A stretch of 12,209 nucleotides of DNA from positions 1 through 12,209 of the IMG/VR virus record IMGVR_UViG_2547132415_000021; one strand, given 5' to 3'. The notes below the pieces were generated by a model, which saw only the letters and a program-made list of their open reading frames with translations, searched no databases and had not been told where the DNA came from. Below are positions 1 through 12,209 of the stretch, piece by piece. Both the position numbers and the translations under genes were made by a program. The stretch is from a virus (lineage: Duplodnaviria > Heunggongvirae > Uroviricota > Caudoviricetes). Each line of letters starts with the position of its first letter. Positions within the stretch are counted from its first letter, which is position 1.

Positions 1-1362
1 ATGTTTAAACCGGAACTCCTTTCCCCGGCGGGAACGCTGAAAAATATGCGTTACGCTTTCGCTTATGGCGCAGATGCTGTTTATGCGGGCCAGCCGCGTT
101 ACTCCCTGCGTGTGCGCAACAACGAATTCAACCACGAAAATCTTCAGCTCGGCATCAATGAAGCCCACGCGCTGGGGAAAAAGTTTTATGTCGTGGTCAA
201 CATTGCACCGCACAACGCCAAGCTGAAAACCTTTATCCGTGACCTGAAACCGGTGGTGGAAATGGGGCCGGATGCGCTGATTATGTCCGATCCAGGGCTG
301 ATTATGCTGGTGCGTGAGCACTTCCCTGAAATGCCGATCCACCTCTCGGTGCAGGCTAACGCCGTAAACTGGGCGACGGTGAAATTCTGGCAGCAAATGG
401 GCCTGACCCGCGTGATCCTCTCTCGCGAGCTGTCGCTGGAAGAGATTGAAGAGATCCGCAATCAGGTGCCGGATATGGAGATCGAGATCTTCGTTCACGG
501 CGCACTGTGCATGGCCTACTCCGGTCGCTGCCTGCTCTCTGGCTATATCAACAAGCGCGATCCGAACCAGGGTACCTGCACCAACGCCTGCCGCTGGGAG
601 TACAACGTCCAGGAAGGGAAAGAAGATGACGTTGGCAACATCGTACACAAGTACGAGCCGATTCCGGTGCAAAATGTTGAGCCGACGCTGGGTATCGGCG
701 CGCCAACCGACAAAGTGTTTATGATCGAAGAAGCCCAGCGTCCGGGCGAGTATATGACCGCGTTTGAAGATGAGCACGGCACTTACATCATGAACTCGAA
801 AGATCTGCGCGCCATCGCCCATGTAGAACGCCTGACCAAAATGGGCGTGCATTCGCTGAAAATCGAAGGCCGTACTAAATCTTTCTACTATTGCGCACGC
901 ACCGCACAGGTTTACCGTAAAGCTATCGATGACGCCGCTGCGGGCAAACCGTTCGATACCAGCCTGCTGGAAACTCTGGAAGGTCTGGCGCATCGTGGCT
1001 ATACCGAAGGTTTCCTGCGTCGTCATACTCACGACGATTATCAGAACTACGAATACGGTTATTCAGTTTCTGACCGCCAGCAGTTTGTTGGTGAGTTTAC
1101 CGGTGAGCGCAAGGGGGACCTCGCGGCGGTAGCGGTGAAAAATAAATTCTCCGTTGGCGACAGCCTTGAGCTGATGACGCCGCAAGGCAACATTAACTTT
1201 ACCCTTGAGCACATGGAAAACGCCAAAGGTGAAGCGATGCCGGTCGCACCAGGCGATGGTTATACTGTGTGGCTCCCGGTCCCGCAGGATCTTGAGCTCA
1301 ATTACGCTCTGCTGATGCGTAATTTCTCCGGGGAAACCACGCGTAACCCACACGGTAAGTGA
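1..1362 (+). CDS. yegQ: U32-family peptidase-like protein YegQ (also called TrhP, tRNA hydroxylation), 453 aa, apparently complete
   Basis: ORF starts with ATG at position 1 and runs 453 codons to a stop. The protein is recognisable by recall as E. coli YegQ, including the CxxxC-containing region (GALCMAYSGRCLLSGY, TCTNACRWEY) typical of U32 proteins. The gene sits immediately upstream of cyaR as in E. coli K-12. Confidence 0.9.
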   Translation: MFKPELLSPAGTLKNMRYAFAYGADAVYAGQPRYSLRVRNNEFNHENLQLGINEAHALGKKFYVVVNIAPHNAKLKTFIRDLKPVVEMGPDALIMSDPGLIMLVREHFPEMPIHLSVQANAVNWATVKFWQQMGLTRVILSRELSLEEIEEIRNQVPDMEIEIFVHGALCMAYSGRCLLSGYINKRDPNQGTCTNACRWEYNVQEGKEDDVGNIVHKYEPIPVQNVEPTLGIGAPTDKVFMIEEAQRPGEYMTAFEDEHGTYIMNSKDLRAIAHVERLTKMGVHSLKIEGRTKSFYYCARTAQVYRKAIDDAAAGKPFDTSLLETLEGLAHRGYTEGFLRRHTHDDYQNYEYGYSVSDRQQFVGEFTGERKGDLAAVAVKNKFSVGDSLELMTPQGNINFTLEHMENAKGEAMPVAPGDGYTVWLPVPQDLELNYALLMRNFSGETTRNPHGK

Positions 1363-1392
1363 TTAATTTCGATTATTTTTCCCGGATGGAAA

Positions 1393-1439
1393 ATTCTTAG
1401 AAACCGATCACATACAGCTGCATTTATTAAGGTTATCAT
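1393..1439 (+). promoter_or_regulatory. Putative cyaR promoter: CRP half-site TCACA (1408-1412) centred about 42 bp upstream of the sRNA 5' end, and a -10-like TATCAT (1434-1439)
   Basis: Seen in sequence: TCACA at 1408-1412 with an imperfect partner half-site TTAGA at 1397-1401, and TATCAT 8-13 bp upstream of the predicted cyaR start at 1447. Established knowledge: CyaR is CRP-activated. The left half-site is a poor match, so the exact site is uncertain. Confidence 0.4.
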
Positions 1440-1446
1440 CCGTTTC

Positions 1447-1533
1447 GCTGAAAAACATAACCCATAAAATGCTAGCTGTACCAGGAACCACCTCCTTAGC
1501 CTGTGTAATCTCCCTTACACGGGCTTATTTTTT
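1447..1533 (+). ncRNA. cyaR: CyaR (RyeE) Hfq-dependent small RNA, 87 nt, ending in its intrinsic terminator
   Basis: The sequence gctgaaaaacataacccataaaatgctagctgtaccaggaaccacctccttagcctgtgtaatctcccttacacgggcttatttttt matches my recollection of E. coli CyaR. It ends in a CCC..GGG hairpin followed by a T6 run, and lies between yegQ and ogr as in K-12. Confidence 0.8.
1507..1533. other. P2-type attachment core (attR), 27 bp, coinciding with the 3' end of cyaR
   Basis: Positions 1507-1533 read aatctcccttacacgggcttatttttt. Its reverse complement AAAAAATAAGCCCGTGTAAGGGAGATT is what I recall as the 27-bp P2 att core, and ogr (the gene next to attR in a P2 prophage) follows immediately. Recall-based; needs alignment to P2 attP. 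Confidence 0.5.
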
Positions 1534-1596
1534 ACGTACAACAAATTGAAATAAAAGGATTTATTTCTGGTCACGTCCACATATTGACCACATCGA

Positions 1597-1621
1597 CAAA
1601 AAAGCCCCTCGACTGAGGGGC
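1597..1621 (-). terminator. Rho-independent terminator downstream of ogr (minus strand)
   Basis: Hairpin gcccctc-gact-gaggggc at 1604-1621. On the minus strand it is followed by a T6 run (the plus-strand A-run at 1598-1603), about 14 nt after the ogr stop codon. Confidence 0.6.
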
Positions 1622-1634
1622 TTCCTGTTTCTAA

Positions 1635-1853
1635 TTACATCCACATAATTTGCTGCCCTGACGGCAACGGGTGCGGCCTTACGGCGTGGACTTCTCCCGG
1701 CTTCACGATGTATCGCTGCACCGACTCATAAGTGATGAACGTGGCGCTGCAATTCACGTTCTGGCACTGGTGATAACGCTCTTTTGTCGTGTCAGTGATA
1801 TAGCGACTTGTACGCGCATGTGCGGCATGCTGGCATAAAGGACAATGAAACAT
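1635..1853 (-). CDS. ogr: Ogr, P2 late-gene transcriptional activator (C4 zinc-finger), 72 aa
   Basis: Protein MFHCPLCQHAAHARTSRYITDTTKERYHQCQNVNCSATF... has the CxxC...CxxC zinc-finger pattern and matches my recollection of P2 Ogr/OgrK. The start at 1853 is preferred over the upstream in-frame ATG at 1916 because a strong SD (aagaggtg) sits about 7 nt upstream of 1853 and Ogr is 72 aa. Confidence 0.9.
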   Translation of the reverse strand: MFHCPLCQHAAHARTSRYITDTTKERYHQCQNVNCSATFITYESVQRYIVKPGEVHAVRPHPLPSGQQIMWM

Positions 1854-1934
1854 CGCGAGCACCTCTTCCGGTTTTGTTGATGGTGCCATTTTAGTTAATT
1901 TATCCTTATAAAACAAACAGATAAAACAAAAACA

Positions 1935-3098
1935 TCACTCATCACCTTCGGTTTCGTACTCCACATCAGAAAGCCTGACCTCAAGCTCCAAGGACGTCGT
2001 GAAGCCGCTATTATTCAGAAAATGTGTCACCTTAGTGATTGTCCAGTCCTGCTCGTCTATGACGCGCTTAAAGCCTGACACTTTGACCGGCGTTTCCGTG
2101 TAAATATCTGCCCGACCGGTAGCCAGGCTGATGGAGAACTCCGCAACGCCCCGTTGCAGTTTATCCCACTTCGCCTGAGCGGCGCGCATGGCCTGCGCTT
2201 TCGTGGCATATACCGTGGTCAGGGCAAAAACATTGTCAGCCTCACCGGCCATGTATTCACCTTCGCGCGCTTCCGGTACTTTTGACGCTTTCTTCTGCGT
2301 GACCGGTTTCGCTTTCGGGTGCTCCAGTGCGCGCAGGTGTTTCTCTTTCTTTTTGCGTTTCAGTTTTACCTTCTGCTTTTGCGGCTTCGGGTCTTTGGTG
2401 TGTAACCACTTTGCCGTTACGCCTGTGTAGGCTCCACGGTCAGCAATCGCAAAATGATGACGGTCGCCGTCGCTGCGGGTGATGGTAATCTGCGGGATTT
2501 TTTTACCGCTGGCCGTCACCCCCTGCCCCGCTTTGAGAAACAGCAGTTTTCCCATTTTTACCGACACCTCACCGCCGTTGCGTTCAGCAAGACGGGTCAG
2601 GAATTTCGCATCGGACTCCTGCGACTGGTCGATGTGCGGGATTTTAATTCCGGCCAGTGACGGAGCGACACTGGCTTTCAGCCTGTTACGGGAGGCTATC
2701 TCCTCAACAATCGCACCGAGCGTGGTGTCATGCCAGGAGCCTTCACGGCGGGAATTGAGCGTCCCGCGAAAATCTGCACTCCGGGCGCGGATGGTAACCA
2801 CATCCGGCGCGCCCCGGTGTTCAACCTCATCAACGGTAAATTTCCCTTTGCATACCAGGGCAAAACCTTTCCAGCCGATATACACCGTCAGGACAGCGCC
2901 ACGAACCGGCAGCCCGACCTGCCCGTCGGCATCGTTCAGTTCAATATCAAGCTGGTCAGCCTCAAAGCCCCGGTTATCCGTCAGGGTCATGCTCATCAGA
3001 CGGTCGCTGATATTGCCGGTAATATCCCTGCTGTCGAGCATCAGCATGTAATCCGGCGTCAGCGTACTGCCTGCATCAAATGTCAGCGCATCCGGCAT
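1935..3098 (-). CDS. D: P2 gpD-like tail protein (phage late control D family), 387 aa
   Basis: 387-aa ORF in the position and order of P2 D, between U and ogr. Its start ATG overlaps the U stop (TAATG at 3096-3100). Full length, unlike the truncated yegZ remnant of K-12. Confidence 0.88.
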   Translation of the reverse strand: MPDALTFDAGSTLTPDYMLMLDSRDITGNISDRLMSMTLTDNRGFEADQLDIELNDADGQVGLPVRGAVLTVYIGWKGFALVCKGKFTVDEVEHRGAPDVVTIRARSADFRGTLNSRREGSWHDTTLGAIVEEIASRNRLKASVAPSLAGIKIPHIDQSQESDAKFLTRLAERNGGEVSVKMGKLLFLKAGQGVTASGKKIPQITITRSDGDRHHFAIADRGAYTGVTAKWLHTKDPKPQKQKVKLKRKKKEKHLRALEHPKAKPVTQKKASKVPEAREGEYMAGEADNVFALTTVYATKAQAMRAAQAKWDKLQRGVAEFSISLATGRADIYTETPVKVSGFKRVIDEQDWTITKVTHFLNNSGFTTSLELEVRLSDVEYETEGDE

Positions 3099-3577
3099 TA
3101 TCCCGCCCCCGTCATACCTGTGAATCTGGTCGCCATACTGCCGGCCTTACCGATGAGCGATTCCGCCTGTTTACCGATATCGCCATAAAGCGCGGCCAGT
3201 GATTCATCAACGCGGGTGAGCGACAGCGTAAAATCAATTTTCCGGGGTGTGCCGTCTGCAAAGAAAATACTCCCTGTTTCACTCACCTTACTGATGACAT
3301 ACATGCCGTAAATCATGCCGGTGCCATCCAGCAACGGCCACGCCCGACCTTCCTCTGCCATCAGCCTGAGCGTGGTCATCGTCAGCTTGCCGCCGGTCAG
3401 TTCGGGATAAAGCACACCGGCCAGCGTGATGTTTTCCTCACCCACACCGAGAAACTGAAAGGCATCCCGTTTGCCGATACGGGAATTTGACGGCCAGCGA
3501 TAATCTGATTCACGCTGCATGGTCTGGTGTGGCAGCGTCTGGCGCATAAAAACAAACATACCTAACGCGAGCATCAT
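3098..3577 (-). CDS. U: P2 gpU-like tail protein, 159 aa
   Basis: 159-aa ORF between T and D. A strong SD (ggaggtg) lies 7 nt upstream of the ATG at 3577 and overlaps the T stop codon. Confidence 0.85.
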   Translation of the reverse strand: MMLALGMFVFMRQTLPHQTMQRESDYRWPSNSRIGKRDAFQFLGVGEENITLAGVLYPELTGGKLTMTTLRLMAEEGRAWPLLDGTGMIYGMYVISKVSETGSIFFADGTPRKIDFTLSLTRVDESLAALYGDIGKQAESLIGKAGSMATRFTGMTGAG

Positions 3578-3591
3578 TTTTCGTCACCTCC

Positions 3592-6039
3592 TTAACCGTC
3601 ATGCATCATGCTGGCACGGGCGCGCGCACGTTTATCCCGCTCGTATTTTTCGAGTGCATCCTGTAACTGGCGGTCGAGCTGTGTCCCCGGCGCAGTACCA
3701 CCCGTCAGGCTGATGTGATATTCGTTTTTACTCTGGTCCACATAAGAGCGGCCAGCCGGTGCCGTAACCGGCTGATAAGCCTGATAGCCTGCATAAGAGC
3801 TGGTCGCCGGAATATAACCACCGCTGCCATACGTGGTGGCTTGAGTTCTGGCGGCGGTCTGGTCAAGTGTGTCTGACTCTTTGTTGATAACACCGAGTTT
3901 TTCCAGTACCCAGTCAATTCCGCTGCGCAGTTTGTTGAACGCATTAAGCGGCAGCATCAGCGCGTCAGCCAGTGCCTGCCCGAACATGACGCCAGTATCA
4001 CGGCAACGGTTCAGGGTGTCCTGGGTGGCTTTGACCGGGGCAATCAGGTTTTTAAACCACTGCCACGCGGCCTGTAACTTTTCGCCCAGCCAGTCAAACA
4101 CCGGCTTAAGTGGCGTGAACAGTTCCCCCACCGGCGCAAATGCCGCTTTCAGCCCTTCCATCACACCGCCAAAGAATGCGCTGACAGGCTCCCAGTATTT
4201 ACGGATAAGCAACGCCCCGGCGACAATGGTGGCCACCACGGCCACAACCGGCCAGCTAATCGCCCCGATGGCGGTCATAACAGCACTGCCAACCGTCGTG
4301 AAGACTGCCCCCATTGCGCCTGCTGCCGCGATGATGGCATTAATGCCGGTGATAACCGGCCAGGCTACAAGACCAATTGCACCGATGATGCCAGTAAGCG
4401 CCAGTGCGCCACCGACAATGAGGCCGATGGTTGACGCCAGTGATTTGTTTTTCTTGATCCAGCCGTCGAGTTTTAACACATACTTTGTGGCCGTCTGAGT
4501 GAGCTTACGCAGCGCGCCTTCCTGCTGGTCAAACAGGTCAGTCCCCACCGCCTCATAAGCGGACTGAAACTCCTTAAAGTCACCGCCGAGGTTGTCCTGC
4601 ATGATATTTACCAGCTCGGCGGTCTTCCCGTCTGAGGCTTTAAACGCAGCGGTCAGTTTGTCCAGCTTTCCGGTTGAGGCGGCAGTCATCAACACGGCGG
4701 CGGCTGAGCTGGCCTCCTCCCCGAAAATAGTTTTCATGTATTCAGCCTGCTGGGCAGTACCGAGCCGGTTTTTCTCAAAACTGGCCTGCATTTCTTTCAG
4801 AATGGTAAATACTGGTCGAGTATTCCCTTTACTGTCTGAGGTTTTCACGCCAAGCTCTTTCAGTGCATCCCATGCTTTTCCCGTCGGTGCCTGCAGGCGG
4901 CTTAACACGGCACGGCTTCCCGTCCCCGCCATTGAACCGGTAATTTTTGCATCATGCAGCGCCCCGACCATTGCGGCGGTTTCTTCAATGCTGACACCAG
5001 CATTTTTTGCCACAGGTGCGGCATAGGTCAGCGCATCGCTCATGCCATCAAAATCGGCGGCGGTTTTGTTCATCGTCATGGAGAGAACATCCCCGATATG
5101 AGCAACCTTATCGTTTGAAAGCTGAAAGGCGGATTTCATCCCCATCAGCAGGGCGGCGTTTTCTTCCATCGTGCGACGGTTCGCCAGCGCCATATTCAGC
5201 GTGACCGGCGTTGCCGCCTGAATGGCATCAACATCCCCACCGGCTTTCGCAATAATAATCTGCGCACCGGCTGCATCATCTGCCGAGGCTGCGGTATTGT
5301 CGCCGAGCTGGCGCGCCTGCTTGCGTAGTGCAGCCATTTCGGCGGAGTCTTTTGCCACACCGAGCACAGCCTGCAATTCTGAGTTTTTCTGCGCAAACTC
5401 ATAACCGGGCATCAGCAACTTAACTCCGGCCATCGTTCCCGCAGCAGCAATCCCCACACCGGCAGCGCCCACTGAGGCCATATTTCCGGCCAGTTCCTTT
5501 CCGGCCTGATAACGCTGTTTTACTGCGTTAAGTTTTGCCTGTTGTGCACTGACACGCGCCAGCGCGTCACGCTGACGGTTAAGCTGTGCGGTGGTTTCAC
5601 TGATACGGTTTTTCAGTCCCTGCTCATCATGTGCAAGATTGCGGGTATTAATTCCCACAGCGGCCAGTTCCCGCTGCTGGCGTTTAATGGAATCTGTCAG
5701 GCGGTTATATTTCGCCTGTAAGTCCTCCGCCGCACGCTTTGCGGATTCCAGCACTTTCGCCTGAGCACGGGTCGGACGTTCAGTGTTTTTAAACTGTGTG
5801 GCAAGGGCTTCGGCTTCCTGCCGTGCCTTTTCAAGTGCATGACCAGTCACGGCAAGCTGTGCGCTGGTCTTGCGAAATCCCTCAATACGGGATGCGTGAC
5901 CGTTCAGCTCGCGCAGTGATTTTTGTGTTTCCCGGATATCCCCCGACAGCGACTTACTCGCTGTACGGATGGATTTAAACGGGCGGGATGCCTGGTCAAC
6001 AGCCCTGAGCAATACCTGTAATTTTACATTGTTACTCAT
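3592..6039 (-). CDS. T: Tail tape measure protein (P2 gpT-like), 815 aa
   Basis: 815-aa ORF with a long Ala/Gln-rich, coiled-coil-like N-terminal half and hydrophobic Gly/Ala-rich segments, typical of tape measure proteins. It lies immediately downstream of the E/E' frameshift chaperone pair, and its start overlaps the E' stop. Confidence 0.9.
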   Translation of the reverse strand: MSNNVKLQVLLRAVDQASRPFKSIRTASKSLSGDIRETQKSLRELNGHASRIEGFRKTSAQLAVTGHALEKARQEAEALATQFKNTERPTRAQAKVLESAKRAAEDLQAKYNRLTDSIKRQQRELAAVGINTRNLAHDEQGLKNRISETTAQLNRQRDALARVSAQQAKLNAVKQRYQAGKELAGNMASVGAAGVGIAAAGTMAGVKLLMPGYEFAQKNSELQAVLGVAKDSAEMAALRKQARQLGDNTAASADDAAGAQIIIAKAGGDVDAIQAATPVTLNMALANRRTMEENAALLMGMKSAFQLSNDKVAHIGDVLSMTMNKTAADFDGMSDALTYAAPVAKNAGVSIEETAAMVGALHDAKITGSMAGTGSRAVLSRLQAPTGKAWDALKELGVKTSDSKGNTRPVFTILKEMQASFEKNRLGTAQQAEYMKTIFGEEASSAAAVLMTAASTGKLDKLTAAFKASDGKTAELVNIMQDNLGGDFKEFQSAYEAVGTDLFDQQEGALRKLTQTATKYVLKLDGWIKKNKSLASTIGLIVGGALALTGIIGAIGLVAWPVITGINAIIAAAGAMGAVFTTVGSAVMTAIGAISWPVVAVVATIVAGALLIRKYWEPVSAFFGGVMEGLKAAFAPVGELFTPLKPVFDWLGEKLQAAWQWFKNLIAPVKATQDTLNRCRDTGVMFGQALADALMLPLNAFNKLRSGIDWVLEKLGVINKESDTLDQTAARTQATTYGSGGYIPATSSYAGYQAYQPVTAPAGRSYVDQSKNEYHISLTGGTAPGTQLDRQLQDALEKYERDKRARARASMMHDG

Positions 6040-6459
6040 TCGTGTTTCCGCTTCGCCGGAGCGCCTTTTCGCGCCATGTGATGAGTTCGGTCAGGCTCAT
6101 GGGATACAGTTCTGATGGCGGCCAGTGAAATATCACTGCCACATCCGCCATCAGGTCATCGACCGACAGATTTTTCGGGAACGTTACTGCACCGAGTTCG
6201 GCGACAAAAAACCGACCACCTTACCGGCCAGCGCCACAAGGTCAGGCAGTTCCAGCGCGGCGACTTCCTGCTCGGTCAGCATCGGTGCCGTCATGCGCGG
6301 CAGCACCTTAATCAGTGCATCGACTTCGGAGTTCGCGACCGCTGCCAGACTGACACCGCGCAGCGTCCCGGCACTGGGTTTCATCAGCGTGACCTGTTCG
6401 ATAACCTGCTCACCACGTTTGACCGGATTGTCCAGGGTAATGACGTTTTCTTTGTTCAT
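6032..6459 (-). CDS. E+E': gpE+E' tail assembly chaperone made by programmed -1 ribosomal frameshift (142 aa predicted)
   Basis: Hand translation: after a -1 slip on the heptamer T-TTT-TTG (minus strand, 6205-6211) the reading frame continues ...GFFVAELGAVTFPKNLSVDDLMADVAVIFHWPPSELYPMSLTELITWREKALRRSGNTNE to a stop at 6032-6034. That gives 142 aa, the length I recall for P2 E+E'. Confidence 0.75.
6184..6459 (-). CDS. E: gpE tail assembly chaperone (zero-frame product), 91 aa
   Basis: 91-aa ORF directly upstream of T. It contains the slippery heptamer near its 3' end, the arrangement analogous to lambda G/GT and conserved in P2. Confidence 0.85.
   Translation of the reverse strand: MNKENVITLDNPVKRGEQVIEQVTLMKPSAGTLRGVSLAAVANSEVDALIKVLPRMTAPMLTEQEVAALELPDLVALAGKVVGFLSPNSVQ
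6205..6211 (-). promoter_or_regulatory. Slippery heptanucleotide TTTTTTG, the -1 programmed frameshift site of E/E'
   Basis: Minus-strand sequence ggt-ttt-ttg at codons 83-85 of E. The -1 frame downstream is open for 57 further codons and ends overlapping the T start. Confidence 0.7.
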
Positions 6460-6515
6460 GGTTTTCTCACTTCTGAATCGTGGTTAACCGGTCAGCCAGG
6501 CTGACCGGATGAAAA

Positions 6516-7034
6516 TCACAGGCCGATATTGCGGCGGTGTTGCTCCAGCCGGTCGACGCCGTTCACCTTCTCAATCATGTTGATGGTGTCGATTTCGACC
6601 AGCTCCTTACCGTCCATCGTCAGCCGGAAATAGGTGCAGACCACGGAGATTTTCGACTCGGTGTCTTCTCCCTGTTTACCCTCGCCGGTGTCGATTTCTT
6701 TCTGACGTCCACGCATGACCACCTCGACGGCCACCGTTTCGCCGGTATCGTCGCGCTGGTAAGAGCCTGCAAAACGAATCGGCACAGCATCCACACCGGT
6801 TGCGGCGTAAAGCTCCCAGATAACCGAATCCGGGAAGCCCCCGAGCGACCACTCCATTGACAGCGCATCGTCATCAAGGCCGAGGTCTACCGGTGCGCTG
6901 CCGTTCATCCCCGCACCGCGATAGTTTTCGAGCTTACGGGTCAGTTTTGGCAGCGTGACGGACTTTGCAACGCCCTGATAGCTGTAGCCGTTCAGAAAGA
7001 CGTTCATTAACTTGAGTTTGCGCGGCATTGCCAT
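6516..7034 (-). CDS. FII: Tail tube protein (P2 gpFII-like), 172 aa
   Basis: 172-aa ORF immediately downstream of the sheath gene. SD aaggag lies 8 nt upstream of the ATG at 7034. Order and length match P2 FII. Confidence 0.9.
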   Translation of the reverse strand: MAMPRKLKLMNVFLNGYSYQGVAKSVTLPKLTRKLENYRGAGMNGSAPVDLGLDDDALSMEWSLGGFPDSVIWELYAATGVDAVPIRFAGSYQRDDTGETVAVEVVMRGRQKEIDTGEGKQGEDTESKISVVCTYFRLTMDGKELVEIDTINMIEKVNGVDRLEQHRRNIGL

Positions 7035-7046
7035 CGGTCAGGCTCC

Positions 7047-8237
7047 TTAATTGCTGTTAACCGAGGTGACCAGATTTGCCAGATATTTATCGGTAATACG
7101 CTGGCGCAGGGTCAGGTTTTCGAGAGGAGGCACCGGGGTATAGTCGTAGTCGATATACAGTTTTCCGGCCTTGAGGGTTTCCGCATCGTTGGATTCTTCG
7201 CTGAACCAGCAGGTCGCATCCACGATATAGCCGTTTGTTTTCAGCTCACGGAATTTGGCATTGATGCCGTCAACGATGTCGCGAATCAGCGTTGCGGTGA
7301 TGGGCTTGTCCACCGCCCACATGTGCGCCTCAGCCATCGTGTCGGCCAGCACCTGCGCGGTGCGGGTGTAGTTTTCAAAGAGGAACAGCGGGTCATCGGA
7401 GCAGGTACGGTTACCCCAGAAGCGGAAACCGTCGCGGCGAATCAGCGTTGTGACGCCTGACTCGTTAAGCAGGTCAGCATCGGTGCCGGACTCCTGCAAA
7501 TCCCAGAATACAGATGCGCTGATGCCGGTAACACCGTTCACCCCGACATTGGACAGCGTTTTATGCCAGCCCTGCTCTTGGTCGATTTTAGCGCGCAGAC
7601 CCAGCGCACGGGCGGTGGCATACGCGGTGGCGGTGGTGCTGCTGACCGTATCCCATGCGAGGAAATCCGGCCAGATGACCATCAGCTCACGCTGGCTGAA
7701 ATTCTGGCGGTAGGCTTTCACCTCGGAAATGGTTTTGCAGCCCCATGCGCTGATATACCCGAAAGCGCGCAGCTTCTGACAGACTGATGCCAGTGCAACA
7801 GCAACCTCTTTGGTGTCCAGTCCCGGCACGCCGAGAATACGCGGTTTAACACCGGTTACCGACTCCGCCGCCAGCAGGGCTTTCAGTCCGGTGTACTGAC
7901 CGTTTTCGTCGGTGGTGCCGATGATATTGGAAACGGTCTGCGCGAGTTTCGTTTCCTCGTCTTCGCCGGTGCCGTCTTCCACACGCACGACAACGGTGAC
8001 CGGTTTTGACTGGTCGGCGATAGCCTGCAACGATGCCGCCAGCGTGCCTTTTTTACCGGCCTTTGCAATCGCGCTCTGCACATTGGTAATCAGCACCGGT
8101 TTATTGAGGGGGAAGATTTCCGCATCCGCATCGCTGGCCGTGCAGACCATGCCGACAATGGCCGTGGATACAGTGGAAATGACACGGGTGCCGTCGTTAA
8201 TCTCCAGCACCTGCACGCCGTGATGATAGTCACTCAT
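7047..8237 (-). CDS. FI: Contractile tail sheath protein (P2 gpFI-like), 396 aa
   Basis: 396-aa ORF, first gene of the FI-FII-E-T-U-D block. Length and position match P2 FI. Confidence 0.9.
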   Translation of the reverse strand: MSDYHHGVQVLEINDGTRVISTVSTAIVGMVCTASDADAEIFPLNKPVLITNVQSAIAKAGKKGTLAASLQAIADQSKPVTVVVRVEDGTGEDEETKLAQTVSNIIGTTDENGQYTGLKALLAAESVTGVKPRILGVPGLDTKEVAVALASVCQKLRAFGYISAWGCKTISEVKAYRQNFSQRELMVIWPDFLAWDTVSSTTATAYATARALGLRAKIDQEQGWHKTLSNVGVNGVTGISASVFWDLQESGTDADLLNESGVTTLIRRDGFRFWGNRTCSDDPLFLFENYTRTAQVLADTMAEAHMWAVDKPITATLIRDIVDGINAKFRELKTNGYIVDATCWFSEESNDAETLKAGKLYIDYDYTPVPPLENLTLRQRITDKYLANLVTSVNSN

Positions 8238-8332
8238 CCGTTTAACTCCGTGGTTAATGGGTGCAACTATTTTCTGTTGGGCAGTGCATGAGACGCTATT
8301 TGACCTGACTGGTCAGTGGATGAAACAACAGA
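8238..8332 (-). promoter_or_regulatory. Putative late promoter region upstream of FI (PF-like), containing the dyad TGACC-N5-GGTCA at 8301-8315
   Basis: Seen: an inverted repeat tgacctgactggtca centred about 71 bp upstream of the FI ATG. Established knowledge: P2 late operons start at Ogr-dependent promoters with an upstream dyad. I could not find a clean match to the TGT-N12-ACA element I recall, so this is tentative. Confidence 0.3.
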
Positions 8333-8364
8333 TAAAGAAAAGGCGGGCAATCAGATTGCCTGCC
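8333..8364 (-). terminator. Rho-independent terminator ending the cargo/upstream transcript ahead of the FI promoter
   Basis: 10-bp stem ggcgggcaat/attgcctgcc (one G-U pair) with loop cag at 8342-8364. On the minus strand it is followed by TTTTCTTTAT. Confidence 0.5.
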
Positions 8365-8469
8365 TTGATTTGTGCTCACTCATTTTCCGACTGACAGTTT
8401 ACATAGCCAAAACGCTATCAAATCTGACAGCCTGCTTTGAGCGAGGAACGGACTAAATGCTCATCTCAG

Positions 8470-8505
8470 CGGTCAAAGGATATTTTTCTTTGACCGTTCT
8501 CTTTA
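8470..8505. other. Perfect 9-bp stem hairpin (cggtcaaag / ctttgaccg, 9-nt loop) just downstream of the SIR2-like gene stop; the U-rich tail is on the plus-strand side
   Basis: Seen in sequence at 8470-8496, followed on the plus strand by ttctctttat. On the minus strand (the gene strand) there is no U-tail, so it may stabilise the mRNA 3' end or block antisense read-in rather than act as the main terminator. Confidence 0.35.
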
Positions 8506-8516
8506 TAGAGAAAAGA

Positions 8517-9425
8517 TTATCTGTTAGTTTTATTCTGAATATCTTTGATTACATCGAGGTAATACTCTTTTTCCTTCCCTTTGAACACTAACCCGAAATT
8601 ATGATTAATTATAACCCCAACACTTTTCAAAAGATCGATTTTTGGTTTGGAAGCAGCGTCATTATAATAATAACCAGGGATGTAATATGTCACCTCATAT
8701 TGCAAGCTTATTTTCTTTGCAATTCTAGTCCTTTCTCTAAATGTAAGTAACCACCAAAGATCAATTTCAACAAAATCCAAATTCAAGCCTAAGATATATA
8801 CATCCTTAGTAAAAAAATCATCGATCCAGCTATTACCAATATCATTTGCTTGCAACCGCTTTGTAAGCGGCTCGTTGAACGATTTATTGGAATACTGACT
8901 TCCGGTAGTTGTATACCCCCGCATGCTTTGCAAATAACCACTGTAATGCTCATAGCCAAGAATTATTGAGCTTGGGTTATTCACTGCTCCATGTATATGC
9001 CATATGTTTTTGTTTTTCACCTGATAATGCCTGAAAATATTGTATTTACTTTCTTTTATTACACCTTCATTTTTTAAATCATCAGGCTTGATGCTGTCGT
9101 CTAAACAATATTCAAAAGCTAAATCATAGTTTGTTGTTAAAATATTATTGCATTCTAATCCAATTATTCTTTGATGGATTTCATTTGGCTTTATTGTGTT
9201 TATCTTTGATGCGATGGAATCTTTTATTTTATTTTCTGAAAATCCATTCACTTGCTTATTTGAAATATTAAAATAAATCTCTTCATAGGCTAGTGGAAAT
9301 GGTTTTTCATGCGTGTCAATTTTTATCCCATATGTTGCCCCTAGGTTATTTAAAACATCAAGCCAAGAATTTCCATTTGTAATATTATTTATGCCATTTC
9401 CAATAAGCAGTGAATAATCGCGCAT
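8517..9425 (-). CDS. Standalone SIR2-like (ThsA-type / SIR2_2-like) putative NAD+-hydrolase, 302 aa; candidate antiphage effector
   Basis: N-terminal Gly-rich motif LLIGNGINN (compare ThsA AGAGLS), TTNYD motif at residues 97-101 (ThsA has WTTNYD), and IWHIHGAVNNPSSIILGYEHY at 141-161 (compare ThsA YKMHGDVEHPSEAVLIKDDY). No SLOG or other sensor domain. SD aaggga lies 5 nt upstream of the ATG. Gene is strongly AT-rich compared with the flanking phage genes. Confidence 0.8.
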   Translation of the reverse strand: MRDYSLLIGNGINNITNGNSWLDVLNNLGATYGIKIDTHEKPFPLAYEEIYFNISNKQVNGFSENKIKDSIASKINTIKPNEIHQRIIGLECNNILTTNYDLAFEYCLDDSIKPDDLKNEGVIKESKYNIFRHYQVKNKNIWHIHGAVNNPSSIILGYEHYSGYLQSMRGYTTTGSQYSNKSFNEPLTKRLQANDIGNSWIDDFFTKDVYILGLNLDFVEIDLWWLLTFRERTRIAKKISLQYEVTYYIPGYYYNDAASKPKIDLLKSVGVIINHNFGLVFKGKEKEYYLDVIKDIQNKTNR

Positions 9426-9549
9426 TTCTATCCCTTATGTTAGATACATTTTTTACACTATACTACTGATATTTATTCTAATACCAGTCATTGGCATGTT
9501 CGACACCGATAAGTTTGATCTTGCCTAGCAACTTATGTTTTCGAATATG

Positions 9550-9557
9550 CCCCCCCC
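9550..9557. repeat. Homopolymeric C8 tract (G8 on the minus strand) in the spacer upstream of the SIR2-like gene
   Basis: Seen: atgccccccccatg at 9547-9560, about 125 bp upstream of the SIR2-like start codon, in otherwise AT-rich sequence. Confidence 0.9.
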
Positions 9558-9655
9558 ATGAAAGTCTTAGACAACTATACCTATTAATATCCTACAGAGT
9601 GCTCTTCGTAGTCAGAAAATGAGAACGAGATAACATCAGTTCATTGGTTTACTCC

Positions 9656-9892
9656 CTACGCAGTTTGTGAGTTAGCACCGTCCGCTTCTGGCACGTAGGG
9701 GACCAACCAGCTGGTCCTCAGGTCCGATATGAGCGAGAAGCTAAAATTCGCAGTTGTTCCCAAAGTCGATGGAGGAATTTTTAACATTACAGTGTATTTA
9801 TCAACGGGAAGCAGGTCACTCTCTATGGTTCTCGCATTATTTGTTAACAAAATAACATATTCTTTTGCTTCATCGATAGTATTGAATATCAT
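9656..9892 (-). CDS. Hypothetical small ORF (78 aa) in the spacer between the two cargo genes; uncertain whether real
   Basis: ATG at 9892 with a weak SD-like GGGAA 3 nt upstream. The N-terminal half (MIFNTIDEAKEYVILLTNNARTIESDLLPVDKYTVML) has cargo-like AT-rich codon usage; the C-terminal half runs through a GC-richer patch with inverted repeats and looks less protein-like. Confidence 0.2.
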   Translation of the reverse strand: MIFNTIDEAKEYVILLTNNARTIESDLLPVDKYTVMLKIPPSTLGTTANFSFSLISDLRTSWLVPYVPEADGANSQTA

Positions 9893-9980
9893 AAGTTCCC
9901 ACTTAACATCGATATCTGCGGTAACTGATTAACACAAAGAAATTCATCCAATAGCAGAGAATAACTTTGAGTTTTAGATT

Positions 9981-10823
9981 TTAAAAAACCTTCAGCCATA
10001 ATGTTTCGAGCCTTGTGCCAATCACGCCTTTTCCAATGTTATCCAGCCCTCGAACCATTGCGTATAAGCCACCTAATATTTGAATCCCTTCCTTTACACC
10101 TAAAGACGAATAGTCAAAAGTTGGAAAGAGGACGTAATAAGACATAATTACCCCAATACAACACTCGAAAACTCCATAGGAAAGACGGAAATTTTCTCTG
10201 TACCAAAATAGTATGAGTCCTAAAACGGGTAAACCCATCATTGTCCCCCAAACTGTAATGGTAGATACCAGTACTTCCATATTGGAATAGACGATGTTTG
10301 CGACTAGAGAAGCAAGCCCGCCGAGCACAAAACTGGCTTTTAGGTAACGCTTTTGAGATGAAACAGCTTTTTCTGCTTTCTCTTCTATTTCTTTATTTAG
10401 AAAATCGCCTTTGCTTTCATTTATAAACTCAATGCCAGTCATAGATGTAATATTCCGACTAGCAAGAAAATAAGACAAGGCACGATCATTGGTCACGACG
10501 CAAGGAACTTCTTCTCCTTGCCGTTCTGCGTAAGAAATAGCTATTCGAGCAATATCAAAGTCTGCCCCAGTCAAACGCTGAGCATTTCTATCGGATTGGA
10601 AGATGTCGTTTTTTATTTTTTCAGGCGCTTCAACTATGAGCACACCAGCGGGAATTGACGAGGCCACTAAATCAGTAATATCTGACCATTTGTTGCTTTT
10701 CCCTCTATATGAAAGCTCATGCATCACAGCTCTTGGGATAACTAGCTTCCGATTTCCAGCTCTAGACAATATCTCCGGATGCTGCAATAAAACATTAGTA
10801 TCTATTATGTATCTACTTGGCAT
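9981..10823 (-). CDS. PIN-domain nuclease fused to a C-terminal 3-4 helix transmembrane region, 280 aa; candidate antiphage effector
   Basis: N-terminus YIIDTNVLLQHPEIL resembles the PhoH2/YlaK-type PIN domain, with candidate acidic residues D8, E36, D89/D91 and D113 (VVTNDRAL). C-terminal hydrophobic segments ASFVLGGLASLVANIVYS, VLVSTITVWGTMMGLPVLGLILFWY and YGVFECCIGVIMSYYVLFPTF. SD aggga lies 6 nt upstream of the ATG. AT-rich. Confidence 0.8.
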   Translation of the reverse strand: MPSRYIIDTNVLLQHPEILSRAGNRKLVIPRAVMHELSYRGKSNKWSDITDLVASSIPAGVLIVEAPEKIKNDIFQSDRNAQRLTGADFDIARIAISYAERQGEEVPCVVTNDRALSYFLASRNITSMTGIEFINESKGDFLNKEIEEKAEKAVSSQKRYLKASFVLGGLASLVANIVYSNMEVLVSTITVWGTMMGLPVLGLILFWYRENFRLSYGVFECCIGVIMSYYVLFPTFDYSSLGVKEGIQILGGLYAMVRGLDNIGKGVIGTRLETLWLKVF

Positions 10824-10839
10824 AAGCTATCCCTGATAC

Positions 10840-10870
10840 CTTAATTTATCAAATAAAACGGTATGTAAAC
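10840..10870 (-). promoter_or_regulatory. Possible sigma70-like promoter for the PIN-TM gene (-35 TTTACA at 10864-10869, -10 TAAATT at 10843-10848 on the minus strand)
   Basis: Seen in sequence only. The spacer is 15 bp, which is suboptimal, so this is a weak candidate. Confidence 0.2.
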
Positions 10871-10970
10871 ATATAAAACATAACTTCACAACTCACTTAT
10901 CAATGCAAGTTTCCCAACCAGGCAAGCCATGTGCTTAGATATCTGACCTAACGTTTCTAAATTGATGAAT

Positions 10971-10994
10971 GTCCGCTATTGGCACGGAGCGGAC
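10971..10994. other. Hairpin gtccgct-N10-agcggac about 60 nt downstream of the G stop codon
   Basis: 7-bp perfect inverted repeat with a 10-nt loop. There is no clear U-tail on either strand, so its role (weak terminator or RNA processing site at the end of the H-G operon) is unclear. Confidence 0.3.
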
Positions 10995-11054
10995 TGTCAG
11001 ATTAGGCTTTACTCTGTGCCATAGATATGTAAGCTCCCACCAGAGCTCATACAC

Positions 11055-11582
11055 TTATTGCGGCATTTCCGGCCATTCAGGATTTGCAGTATCCACACGA
11101 CTGACAAGAACGCTGTAGCGTTCCCATGCCTCCAGTCGACTGCGCTCCTCATCTGTTGCCATATTCAGCCTGACAGCGCGCTCCAGCGGCAAAATCAGGG
11201 ATTCGGCTTCGGAAAGCAAAGTTGCCTTTTGTGATTCTGCCAGTTGCTGCTGTTCGTCTGCCGTATAAATCCGCTTAATCACTGCACCATCCTTAAACAT
11301 CCATTTACCTGAGTCATCAGCACGCCGGTTGGCAGTAATATCAGGAACCTCAACGACGCTAAAACCTTCAGGATTAAGCGTTGAAGCATCTCTGGTGATG
11401 GCGACAATAATATTATTTTCATCATAAACAATCTTTATTGTCTCTGGCTGAAAATTACTTACTTCCTCATACCAGTTTTTTCCGTCTTCGGACCATAACC
11501 AGATAACATCAAAATTCTTTGTTAGCTGATATTGCTCTTTTGTTTTTGGATTACCTGACTTAATGTTCTTTAAATGCTGCAT
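11055..11582 (-). CDS. G: Tail fibre assembly protein (P2 gpG-like), 175 aa
   Basis: 175-aa ORF immediately downstream of the tail fibre gene (H stop at 11586-11588, G start at 11582). Length and position match P2 G. Confidence 0.88.
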
Positions 11583-11585
11583 AAC

Positions 11586-12209
11586 TTATACCTGCGCAAC
11601 GTTATACCATGTGCCATTGATGTATTTTTGTATTGGTCTGAATACTGCCGGATCATCGCCATCAACTTCACCGACAATACCAAGCCCCGTAATTGCATGG
11701 CCTGATTTTTCATACATCACGCCTTTCTGCATGGTCTGCACAACACGTGTGCCAAGTCTGATATCTCTCACATAGCGGGAATCAAAGTTACCGTAATCCG
11801 AGGGATTAACACGCCCCGTAATATTTATGGTCTTATTACTTTGAATGCTTCCGGAGACAAAGCGCATAACATGGACGTTATTAGCATAAACATCTAGATT
11901 ACCATCGCCATTTTGTTTAAATCCGGTGTCGCTATCACCAAGAACAATAGAGTTCCCACCCAACGCGTTATTCGTGCCAAGTGCCAGCCCGCCATCAATC
12001 CTGGCACCATTACCAACAGACACAACTCCTGTTCTTAAGTTGATACCGAATGGCCTTAATGGCCCGATATCCCCATTTTCACCCTCATTTTCTCGTGTAG
12101 GGATGATATACAGGTTTTCTTCAGAACGGCGAAAAATAGCACCAAAAGATGAATTAAATATCCTCAGTGCATTGACTGTAGATATTTTTACTTCACTGCT
12201 GAAAAGGGC
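11586..12209 (-). CDS. H: Tail fibre protein (P2 gpH-like), C-terminal portion only; the 5' end lies beyond the window
   Basis: The reading frame stays open on the minus strand from the window end (12209) to the stop at 11586-11588 (hand-translated), so the GTG 'start' at 12023 in the ORF track is internal. The Gly/Asn-rich repetitive C-terminus is typical of tail fibre tips. Confidence 0.85.

Follow-up and report, generated by a model that had tools for sequence, protein, structure and literature searches.

A single-domain SIR2 protein on a one-gene cassette of a P2-like prophage as a candidate stand-alone anti-phage NADase

Introduction

The cargo of a P2-like Escherichia coli prophage includes a 302-aa protein of the immune SIR2 type that ends with its SIR2 fold and that, judging from DNA comparisons, travels on a cassette of its own. 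On balance we lean slightly towards the view that this protein is a self-contained, one-gene anti-phage NADase that would be inactive in the lysogen, would be switched on by infection without a partner and would abort that infection. Few effectors are commoner in bacterial immunity than SIR2 NADases. To our knowledge, sensing is carried out by a separate domain or by a partner in every SIR2 case that has been worked out, namely ThsA, DSR2, SIR2-HerA, Avs5, pAgo-SIR2 and KomC. The DNA considered here, referred to as the window, is a stretch of 12,209 nucleotides (IMG/VR record IMGVR_UViG_2547132415_000021, positions 1 to 12,209) that represents the tail-gene end of the prophage, inserted beside trhP.

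Results

An immune-type SIR2 protein of a single domain

The SIR2 gene (8517..9425, minus strand) begins with an ATG codon preceded by a Shine-Dalgarno-like AAGGGA and encodes a single-domain protein of the SIRim type (PF13289). A preliminary description of this DNA, made from the letters alone, had read it as a ThsA-like SIR2 domain, a reading that is borne out by a Pfam SIR2_2 (PF13289) match above the gathering cutoff (E-value 2.8e-10; 40.9 bits against 24.5), by the alignment to ThsA and by the structural neighbours. A second Pfam match, to AbiH (PF14253; residues 66-226, E-value 4e-6), stays under its cutoff with 27.5 bits against 30.9. The PADLOC matches were weak, partial and generic and fell on the SIR2 part of the ThsA and LmuA models, with the ThsA one limited to profile positions 23-178 of 478; the SIR2 (GAO_19) model matched with an E-value of 0.0044. 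The NCBIfam search with the protein returned no match, and PHROGs gave a single weak family without known function. Among solved structures, those of ThsA, KomC and human FAM118B are the nearest in sequence.

The TTNYD and H-x-H-G motifs lie where the preliminary description had located them. N99, the predicted catalytic asparagine within T97-T98-N99-Y100-D101 (codon at 9129..9131, minus strand), and H145, the predicted catalytic histidine within W142-H143-I144-H145-G146 (codon at 8991..8993, minus strand), had been likened to ThsA N112 and H152, and counting residues in a HMMER alignment to BcThsA (6lhx) confirms both pairings. H145 also matches the KomC histidine that is mutated in entry 9xvc (H146N). 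A third residue, D217 (codon at 8775..8777, minus strand), resides in a G-L-x-L-D-F-x-E loop before the helix at 221-235 and is, from its position in the fold, likely the counterpart of KomC D194, the aspartate that is required for NADase activity (PMC13454610). The nucleotide-binding loop, G9-N10-G11-I12-N13-N14 (9384-9401, minus strand), is a family-specific variant of GAGxS.

The AlphaFold2 model (pLDDT 92, pTM 0.91) consists of one alpha/beta domain with 7 strands and nothing after it. Pfam and the model thus agree with the earlier statement that the protein carries no sensor or other C-terminal domain, and a scan for hydrophobic segments found none. The sheet is of the Rossmann kind with at least 7 strands and there is no Zn-binding cysteine tetrad; indeed, the protein has only two cysteines and therefore lacks the Zn module of deacetylating sirtuins. 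Its structural neighbours belong overwhelmingly to the immune NADase clade, the protein being closer to immune SIR2s than to deacetylases, so that the structure prediction called for earlier agrees with an immune-type SIR2. A search of the viral structure library (BFVD) with the model gave no significant match. Taken together, the protein is a conserved, single-domain SIR2 of the immune type (SIRim/PF13289) with an intact Asn/His site.

A large family in which the bare form predominates

Conservation was assessed on 78 homologues that are 44-90% identical. Invariant among them are G9, N10, N13, T97, T98, N99, Y100, W142, H143, H145 and G146, the predicted catalytic Asn and His, whose lack of conservation would have spoken against the assignment, thus being kept in 78/78; the position of D217 holds D in 76/78 and E220 is found in 78/78. 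The G-x-G loop announced in the preliminary description is present in the window protein (G9-N10-G11), but it does not hold as a family rule, since 42 of the 78 homologues have G at position 11 and 36 (46%) have D. Whereas ThsA and KomC have GAGxS, the family loop reads G-N-(G/D)-I-N-N, with N10, N13 and N14 conserved in place of the usual A and S. Because the loop departs from GAGxS and carries Asp at position 11 in 46% of homologues, the substrate or the chemistry could differ. Purifying selection is clear, with 39 invariant positions, and many invariant aromatic or charged residues lie outside the active site, at K41-E48, 156-171, 199-205 and 216-230.

A word-indexed search with the protein retrieved 1444 clusters at 90% identity (E<=1e-3), and the best 120 of these 1444 are almost all 290-330 aa long. 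An exhaustive profile search of 1.84 billion representatives (50% identity) gave 2171 matches at E<=1e-3, 1410 at E<=1e-10 and 561 at E<=1e-30, and among its best 150 matches nearly all are 280-345 aa and are covered end to end. Such numbers greatly exceed anything that chance would produce. To judge from these lengths, the bare SIR2 form is the norm in a large family. Its hosts are Enterobacterales, Vibrio, Aeromonas, Shewanella and many species of Sphingobacterium and Chitinophaga, and it is nearly absent from sequenced phage genomes and plasmids (2 and 1 distant matches, respectively). A literature search with the accession of the protein found no paper. The family is real, well conserved and uncharacterised, an effector-only form of the SIR2 defence theme on a single-gene cassette.

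A cassette with its own boundary sites in the P2 cargo hotspot

On the minus strand the window reads ogr, D, U, T, E, FII, FI, cargo, G, H, so that the cargo is flanked by the sheath gene FI (7047-8237, minus strand) and by the tail-fibre assembly gene G (11055-11582, minus strand). The GC content of the FI-G cargo is 0.28-0.40 versus about 0.55 in the phage genes. Flanks of this site are present in 1017 of 5426 complete E. coli genomes, and a single one of those 1017 holds the SIR2 plus PIN-TM cargo. Other P2-like phages carry different genes at the site, and among them are records in which a P2 'Z-region' with left and right inverted repeats is annotated. The cargo site is the G/FI (Z/fun, 'TO') cargo hotspot of P2 phages; we take its name and history to be those of Nilsson et al. 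2004, reportedly the first description of inverted repeats in this P2 region. P2-like phages are known to carry anti-phage genes in two variable loci (Rousset et al., 2022; PMC9122126).

Within this cargo, the SIR2 gene belongs to a unit of about 1.27 kb (8430..9703, minus strand) that comprises, in order, an L site, a leader, a promoter-proximal region, the gene, a hairpin and an R site. Window positions 9703-8434 are 97.5% identical over 1270 bp (BLASTN) to a Klebsiella locus that has no PIN-TM gene (L008:4724-5992), and the ends of the cassette coincide with the L and R sites. The L site (GTCCCCTACGTGCCAGAAGCGGAC; 9680..9703, minus strand), found by pattern scan and flank comparison, is exactly where the Klebsiella homology starts, while the R site (GTCCGTTCCTCGCTCAAAGCAGGC; 8430..8453, minus strand) is the FI-proximal 'right inverted repeat' of the P2 hotspot. 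The sites follow the consensus GTCCGCTCyGTGCCAnnAGCGGAC (L) and GTCCGyTyyTCGCTCAnAGCrGAC (R), both of which form short hairpins. Composites of R and L are located between cassettes; for the clean one from Klebsiella, folding gave z = -3.9. As to spacing, 197-256 bp separate the L site from the SIR2 start downstream of it, and 63-65 bp separate the stop from the R site after it, in the window, Klebsiella, Dickeya and a further locus (L117). The outermost sites of the window are the counterparts of the inverted repeats in the P2-EC58 annotation.

The leader (GCTAACTCACAAACTGCGTAGGGAGTAAACCAATGA...; 9562..9679, minus strand) is also found in the DUF4297-HerA cassettes of Yersinia and Rahnella, with 86% identity over 134 bp to L009:1257-1387. 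The promoter-proximal region with the 5'UTR (85 bp; 9426..9510, minus strand) moves with the SIR2 gene in Yersinia and Dickeya, being 72-78% identical to L009:4920-5000 and L002:5919-6000. A consensus promoter scan found sites no commoner than in shuffled sequence and identified no promoter. Just 3' of the SIR2 stop codon and inside the cassette is a stem-loop with a 13-bp stem (8468..8498, minus strand; the palindrome was called on the plus strand) that is kept in Klebsiella, Rahnella, Yersinia, Dickeya and L117; since its minus-strand tail is not T-rich, it may not act as a terminator. On the evidence of these alignments, the SIR2 gene is an autonomous one-gene cassette, placed beside an unrelated PIN-TM cassette in the P2 hotspot. 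Such cassette boundaries would explain the shuffling of single genes of this kind into the hotspot.

A literature search with the sequences of the boundary sites found no paper, and a scan of 709 kb of non-enterobacterial loci found neither L nor R sites. As a separate observation, the same L and R sites border variable genes in E. coli islands that encode proteins with YagK/YfjJ domains (inovirus Gp2-type).

The neighbouring PIN-TM gene and the 'spacer' between the two genes

The PIN-TM gene (9981-10823) sits in a cassette separate from the SIR2 unit (9722..10994, minus strand), with an L site (10971-10994) at one end and a degenerate R site (9722-9745) at the other, both on the minus strand. 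Its product has a PIN_4 domain at residues 5-121 (E-value 3.3e-11) and hydrophobic segments at 188-206 and 218-236, and it belongs to a compact family (109 clusters, about 280 aa). Window positions 10985-9730 are 95.6% identical over 1257 bp (BLASTN) to a Pectobacterium locus that has no SIR2 gene (L018:3840-5095). In Pectobacterium the gene stands alone near a relaxase, and in Aeromonas it stands alone between trpA and ydjM. DNA homology divides the cargo into two cassettes with the junction at about 9703-9730, and because BLASTN splits the cargo so cleanly, the SIR2/PIN-TM pairing represents juxtaposed cassettes and no operon. Some lysogens have 247-aa gene calls that suggested a PIN-TM pseudogene, a candidate we rejected because the DNA is identical and the gene caller had picked another start.

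It is conceivable that the two genes nevertheless form one system in which the membrane PIN protein senses infection or restrains the SIR2 effector, or the reverse. They are adjacent and on the same strand, and in E. coli they are always found together in the same P2 cargo (24/24 contigs for each protein). However, the E. coli copies are one nearly identical cargo and therefore count as a single evolutionary event, a gap of 555 bp with a cassette boundary lies between the genes, and 95-97% identical copies of each cassette exist apart from the other. Moreover, PIN-TM is missing from about 100 other SIR2 loci, including those of Klebsiella, Dickeya, Providencia, Serratia, Proteus, Salmonella and Trabulsiella, and SIR2 is missing from the PIN-TM loci of Pectobacterium and Aeromonas. 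We regard a two-gene system as highly improbable. PIN-TM was likewise dismissed as a SIR2 partner on the grounds that the sole co-occurrence, in 12 encoding-contig sets and 80 genome loci, is the one E. coli P2 cargo, and for the same reasons the proposal that SIR2 activation may depend on the neighbouring PIN-TM protein did not survive.

The 'spacer', which had also been put forward as a possible regulator, is the 555 bp between the SIR2 and PIN-TM genes and holds the cassette junction. It resolves into the 3' flank of the PIN cassette (9980-9746), the degenerate R site (9745-9722) followed by an 18-nt linker and the L site (9703-9680), the SIR2 cassette leader (9679-9562) and the promoter-proximal region (9510-9426). 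The idea of a regulatory spacer element thus finds no support, its parts being PIN 3' flank, R+L boundary site and SIR2 leader and promoter region; a search of the whole cargo against Rfam in E-value mode was negative, and a repeat search found no tandem repeats of the ToxI type. A 78-aa ORF (9656..9892, minus strand) was considered as a small partner or antitoxin. It has no match in Pfam, PADLOC or PHROG and PGAP has no annotation there; because it crosses the junction, lacks homologues and has a start that is broken in Pectobacterium, it was judged spurious and the candidate was rejected.

Genomic neighbourhoods of SIR2 relatives

The Klebsiella relative (97% identical) is alone with an HNH gene nearby, and the relative in the host of P0002 (90%) is alone. 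The Yersinia SIR2 (85%) lies downstream of DUF4297-HerA, that of Serratia (82%) between McrBC and a GIY-YIG gene, and that of Dickeya (81%) adjoins Phd/Fic. In Providencia (78%) it is part of an integrase island at smpB, together with a kinase/PP2C pair and a PvuRts1I-like enzyme, and in Proteus (71%) it lies at a prophage end, the downstream gene being PD-T7-5 (E-value 1.7e-131), a validated single-gene defence. The Salmonella diarizonae SIR2 (53%) is inside an ICE, and sanA and mglC flank the inserted gene in Trabulsiella. In Proteobacteria the gene is thus met in defence islands, prophage hotspots and ICEs.

Eighty further SIR2 loci came from a scan of one genome per species and were compared using crude gene calls and a clustering of three neighbours on each side. 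Recurrent neighbours in these 80 loci are confined to single genera, and the tightly linked upstream genes considered as partners (AlkB in Chitinophaga, a phytochrome kinase in Sphingobacterium, SanA in Trabulsiella) were set aside as genus-specific synteny. Outside Chitinophaga and Sphingobacterium, 34 loci supplied 122 neighbours, in which no single Pfam or PADLOC family turns up more than 4 times; DUF4297, PtuA/PtuB (Septu), AbiEii, AriA-like and mad genes are sporadic there. Across the roughly 100 SIR2 loci there is no conserved neighbour.

Could the protein be an orphan effector to which a diffusible nucleotide signal, made by another system of the Thoeris, Kongming or CBASS kind, binds directly? 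The closest structures, KomC and ThsA, are those of signal-activated effectors, and the SIR2 gene is often found in defence islands. Yet there is no SLOG, Macro or KomB-like ligand module in the protein or adjoining it, no signal-producing gene recurs in the neighbourhoods, and a cassette that moves alone between genera could not depend on a particular host system. An orphan effector of this sort therefore seems unlikely to us.

Another scenario takes the window gene as the remnant of a three-gene DUF4297-HerA-SIR2 system whose first two genes were lost, leaving the E. coli copy inactive or deregulated. In Yersinia and Rahnella, whose SIR2 proteins are 85-88% identical to that of the window, DUF4297, HerA and SIR2 are indeed held within the same L-to-R interval, and taking 3.5 kb away from that interval leaves the window cassette, with the leader in common. 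Against this, standalone SIR2 is the rule (Klebsiella, Dickeya, Serratia, Providencia, Trabulsiella, Vibrio and Bacteroidota), the Yersinia SIR2 gene retains a conserved upstream region of its own, with a gap of 392 bp, DUF4297-HerA is already known as a system that is complete with two genes (PADLOC DUF4297, 5.8e-163), and the 39 invariant positions testify to clear purifying selection on SIR2. A decayed three-gene system is thus very improbable, although descent from a three-gene unit is conceivable.

The contexts in Chitinophaga and Sphingobacterium are unusual for a defence gene. In Chitinophaga, SIR2 follows directly after genes for an HhH-GPD glycosylase and an AlkB-type oxygenase in at least 18 species, with gaps of 7-57 bp, and in Sphingobacterium it lies among housekeeping genes. 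The Chitinophaga synteny could be mere inheritance or could reflect a different, damage-related role. A further alternative is an enzyme that uses NAD to modify other molecules, such as an ADP-ribosyltransferase with protein, DNA or RNA as its target, and that serves in handling stress or damage or in lysogenic conversion. But synteny within a single genus can be a matter of inheritance and not of function, the proteobacterial contexts are those named above, and the structural neighbours come overwhelmingly from the immune NADase clade. We give a modifying enzyme a minor but appreciable chance.

Discussion

The SIR2 protein can be set against the known systems that use this fold. By analogy, its mode of action would come closest to that of the Thoeris and Kongming SIR2 effectors. 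In type I Thoeris, ThsA (BcThsA, 6lhx/8bto; SeThsA, 7uxt) has a C-terminal SLOG domain that binds gcADPR, whereas the window protein lacks SLOG, ends where the SIR2 domain of ThsA ends, and has the loop GN(G/D)INN instead of GAGLS. No Thoeris ThsB/TIR gene was found among the scanned or matched proteins of the window (P2 tail, PIN-TM and TrhP) or among homologue neighbours. KomC of Kongming (8zsf, 9v0g) is a SIR2-only NADase of 264 aa, but its activity requires a filament shared with KomB, the sensor of dITP, which arises through KomA and phage kinases; KomA (a deaminase) and KomB (a HAM1-like NTP pyrophosphatase) are absent from the window and from the recurrent homologue-neighbour families listed. 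Having no SLOG, ThsB, KomA or KomB, the window protein fails membership in Thoeris and Kongming alike. DSR1 and DSR2 are about 1000 aa long, compared with 302 aa here, and carry at the C-terminus a large sensor domain that binds the tail tube; SIR2-HerA (Nezha/GAO_19) depends on a HerA partner that the window lacks, and the HerA near the Yersinia and Rahnella relatives pairs with DUF4297; Avs5 (SIR2-STAND) carries a STAND NTPase and SIR2-APAZ/pAgo an Argonaute, neither of which is present. Closest in architecture is AbiH (lactococcal Abi, PF14253), the only described bacterial defence gene that consists of a single sirtuin-like protein without a partner, and whose mechanism is unknown (PMC13064643). 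Sequence similarity to AbiH is weak, however: AbiH has 346 aa and comes from Firmicutes ICEs, whereas the 302-aa window protein falls under the AbiH cutoff and passes that of SIR2_2, placing the two in different families.

How a bare SIR2 stays off and then turns on is a genuine question, now posed more sharply. With no partner gene and no extra domain, the switch of a self-contained NADase would have to be built into the single SIR2 domain. In the lysogen, the protein would be made in an inactive state. Infection by another phage would then activate it without a partner gene, and the active protein would cleave NAD+ through the site formed by N99 and H145, and probably also D217, so that the infection is aborted. 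Direct sensing of a phage product by the SIR2 domain, which the preliminary description had listed among its options, is our best guess: most likely, a protein or metabolite made by the phage would bind the domain itself, and on binding the domain would be made to assemble into an active oligomer or filament, as with the SIR2 domains of ThsA, KomC, Avs5 and FAM118B. These four structural relatives have all been solved as helical or filament assemblies, and ThsA, KomC and FAM118B are activated through filaments (PMC13454610, PMC12700824, bioRxiv 2024.09.18.613514). As oligomerisation is tied to activity in these relatives, we consider trigger-induced oligomerisation of the bare SIR2 the most likely switch, by pure inference from them. 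The invariant surfaces at K41-E48, 156-171, 199-205 and 216-230 are candidates for the interface.

A bolder scenario, which we offer as speculative, is that a bare SIRim of about 300 aa is a complete immune protein that combines sensing, autoinhibition and NAD+ destruction. The segments KPFPxxYE, LGYEHYSGYLQxMRxY, SWxDxFF and LDFxExxLWWLL would then make up the trigger or filament interface. No SIR2 defence known so far would be more minimal, and FAM118B would have a bacterial counterpart, carried on a hairpin-bounded cassette that might be spread by a putative exchange mechanism common to P2 phages and enterobacterial islands.

The family is large and reaches from E. coli prophages to Bacteroidota, with the effector domain alone and no conserved partner. 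Should the SIR2 protein protect on its own, the SIR2 fold would act as sensor and executioner in one. Were it to give no protection, the Chitinophaga association with AlkB and a DNA glycosylase would point to a non-immune use of an immune-type SIR2 fold. Protection by the protein alone would also provide a very small, tractable model for filament activation that is applicable to human FAM118B, a SIRim-only, filament-forming NADase (PMC12700824). FAM118B and FAM118A (SIRanc) resemble the proposal made here in being SIRim-only and filament-forming, but they are eukaryotic, act in TLR signalling and show about 19% identity.

Hairpin sites at the cassette boundaries

Two conserved 24-nt hairpin sites flank single-gene cargo units in Enterobacterales, an L site at the upstream end of the cassette (consensus GTCCGCTCyGTGCCAnnAGCGGAC) and an R site at the downstream end (consensus GTCCGyTyyTCGCTCAnAGCrGAC), and where two cassettes adjoin, these combine into R+L composite sites. 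In the window, an L site lies at 10971-10994, a composite site separates the PIN-TM and SIR2 cassettes (R, 9722-9745; L, 9680-9703) and an R site lies at 8430-8453. Boundary sites are likewise present in the homologous loci of Klebsiella (L008:4724-4747, 5973-5996 and 7914-7979) and Dickeya (L002:5781-5804, 6975-6998 and 7892-7957), as well as in L117 (3725-3748 and 4973-5037) and L104-L106 (at about 1901, 4005 and 5158). Cross-species DNA homology ends precisely at the L and R sites, and 709 kb of non-enterobacterial loci contain no match to either. In P2-EC58, the counterparts of the window's outermost pair are annotated as 'left/right inverted repeats'; the site sequences themselves were not found in the literature searched. 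Cassettes and composite sites follow one another in an array laid out like that of an integron.

Immediately 3' of the L site starts a leader of ~130 nt (GCTAACTCACAAACTGCGTAGGGAGTAAACCAATGA...; window 9562-9694, L009:1257-1387 and L024 at about 1442-1570) that may be a promoter, a small RNA or another element and has no match in Rfam. It is 86% identical between the SIR2 cassette and the cassette that carries DUF4297-HerA in Yersinia and Rahnella; in both genera a single L-to-R interval holds DUF4297, HerA and the SIR2 homologue.

The neighbouring cassette encodes a PIN_4 and transmembrane protein of 280 aa (9981-10823, minus strand), and this gene is mobile as a separate one-gene cassette. 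The protein belongs to a tight family (109 clusters in Proteobacteria, Chlorobi and Campylobacterota), matched no PADLOC model and is itself an uncharacterised candidate for a toxin or a one-gene defence.

The sole complete E. coli genome with the same cargo is that of strain ZH177, in which the prophage is decayed. Beside the cargo, PGAP marks both the D gene and a tail gene as partial (L001:7607-9000), so most of the FI-to-D tail genes are deleted there, whereas the tail module of the window is complete (1935-8237).

The SIR2 family and its genomic neighbours

Residues 9-14 of the SIR2 family (window 9384-9401) form the loop G-N-(G/D)-I-N-N, in contrast to the GAGxS loop of the NADases ThsA and KomC, and 46% of family members carry Asp in place of its second Gly. 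Such an atypical loop may alter NAD binding or accommodate another ligand.

In Proteus mirabilis, a PD-T7-5 match (L003:6954-8078, E 1.7e-131) lies 38 bp 3' of the SIR2 homologue, and the pair sits at a prophage end, adjoining a tail-tip gene. It makes up a further mini defence island carried by a phage.

In 18 Chitinophaga species, an AlkB-type 2OG-Fe(II) oxygenase gene ends 7-57 bp before the SIR2 homologue (which occupies about 5001-5900 of L052, L057, L067, L068, L070, L074, L075, L077, L081, L084, L086, L087, L090, L093, L094, L096, L099 and L101), often with an HhH-GPD glycosylase before and a META/DUF4377 protein after. This synteny with DNA-repair genes is conserved, an uncommon context for defence genes.
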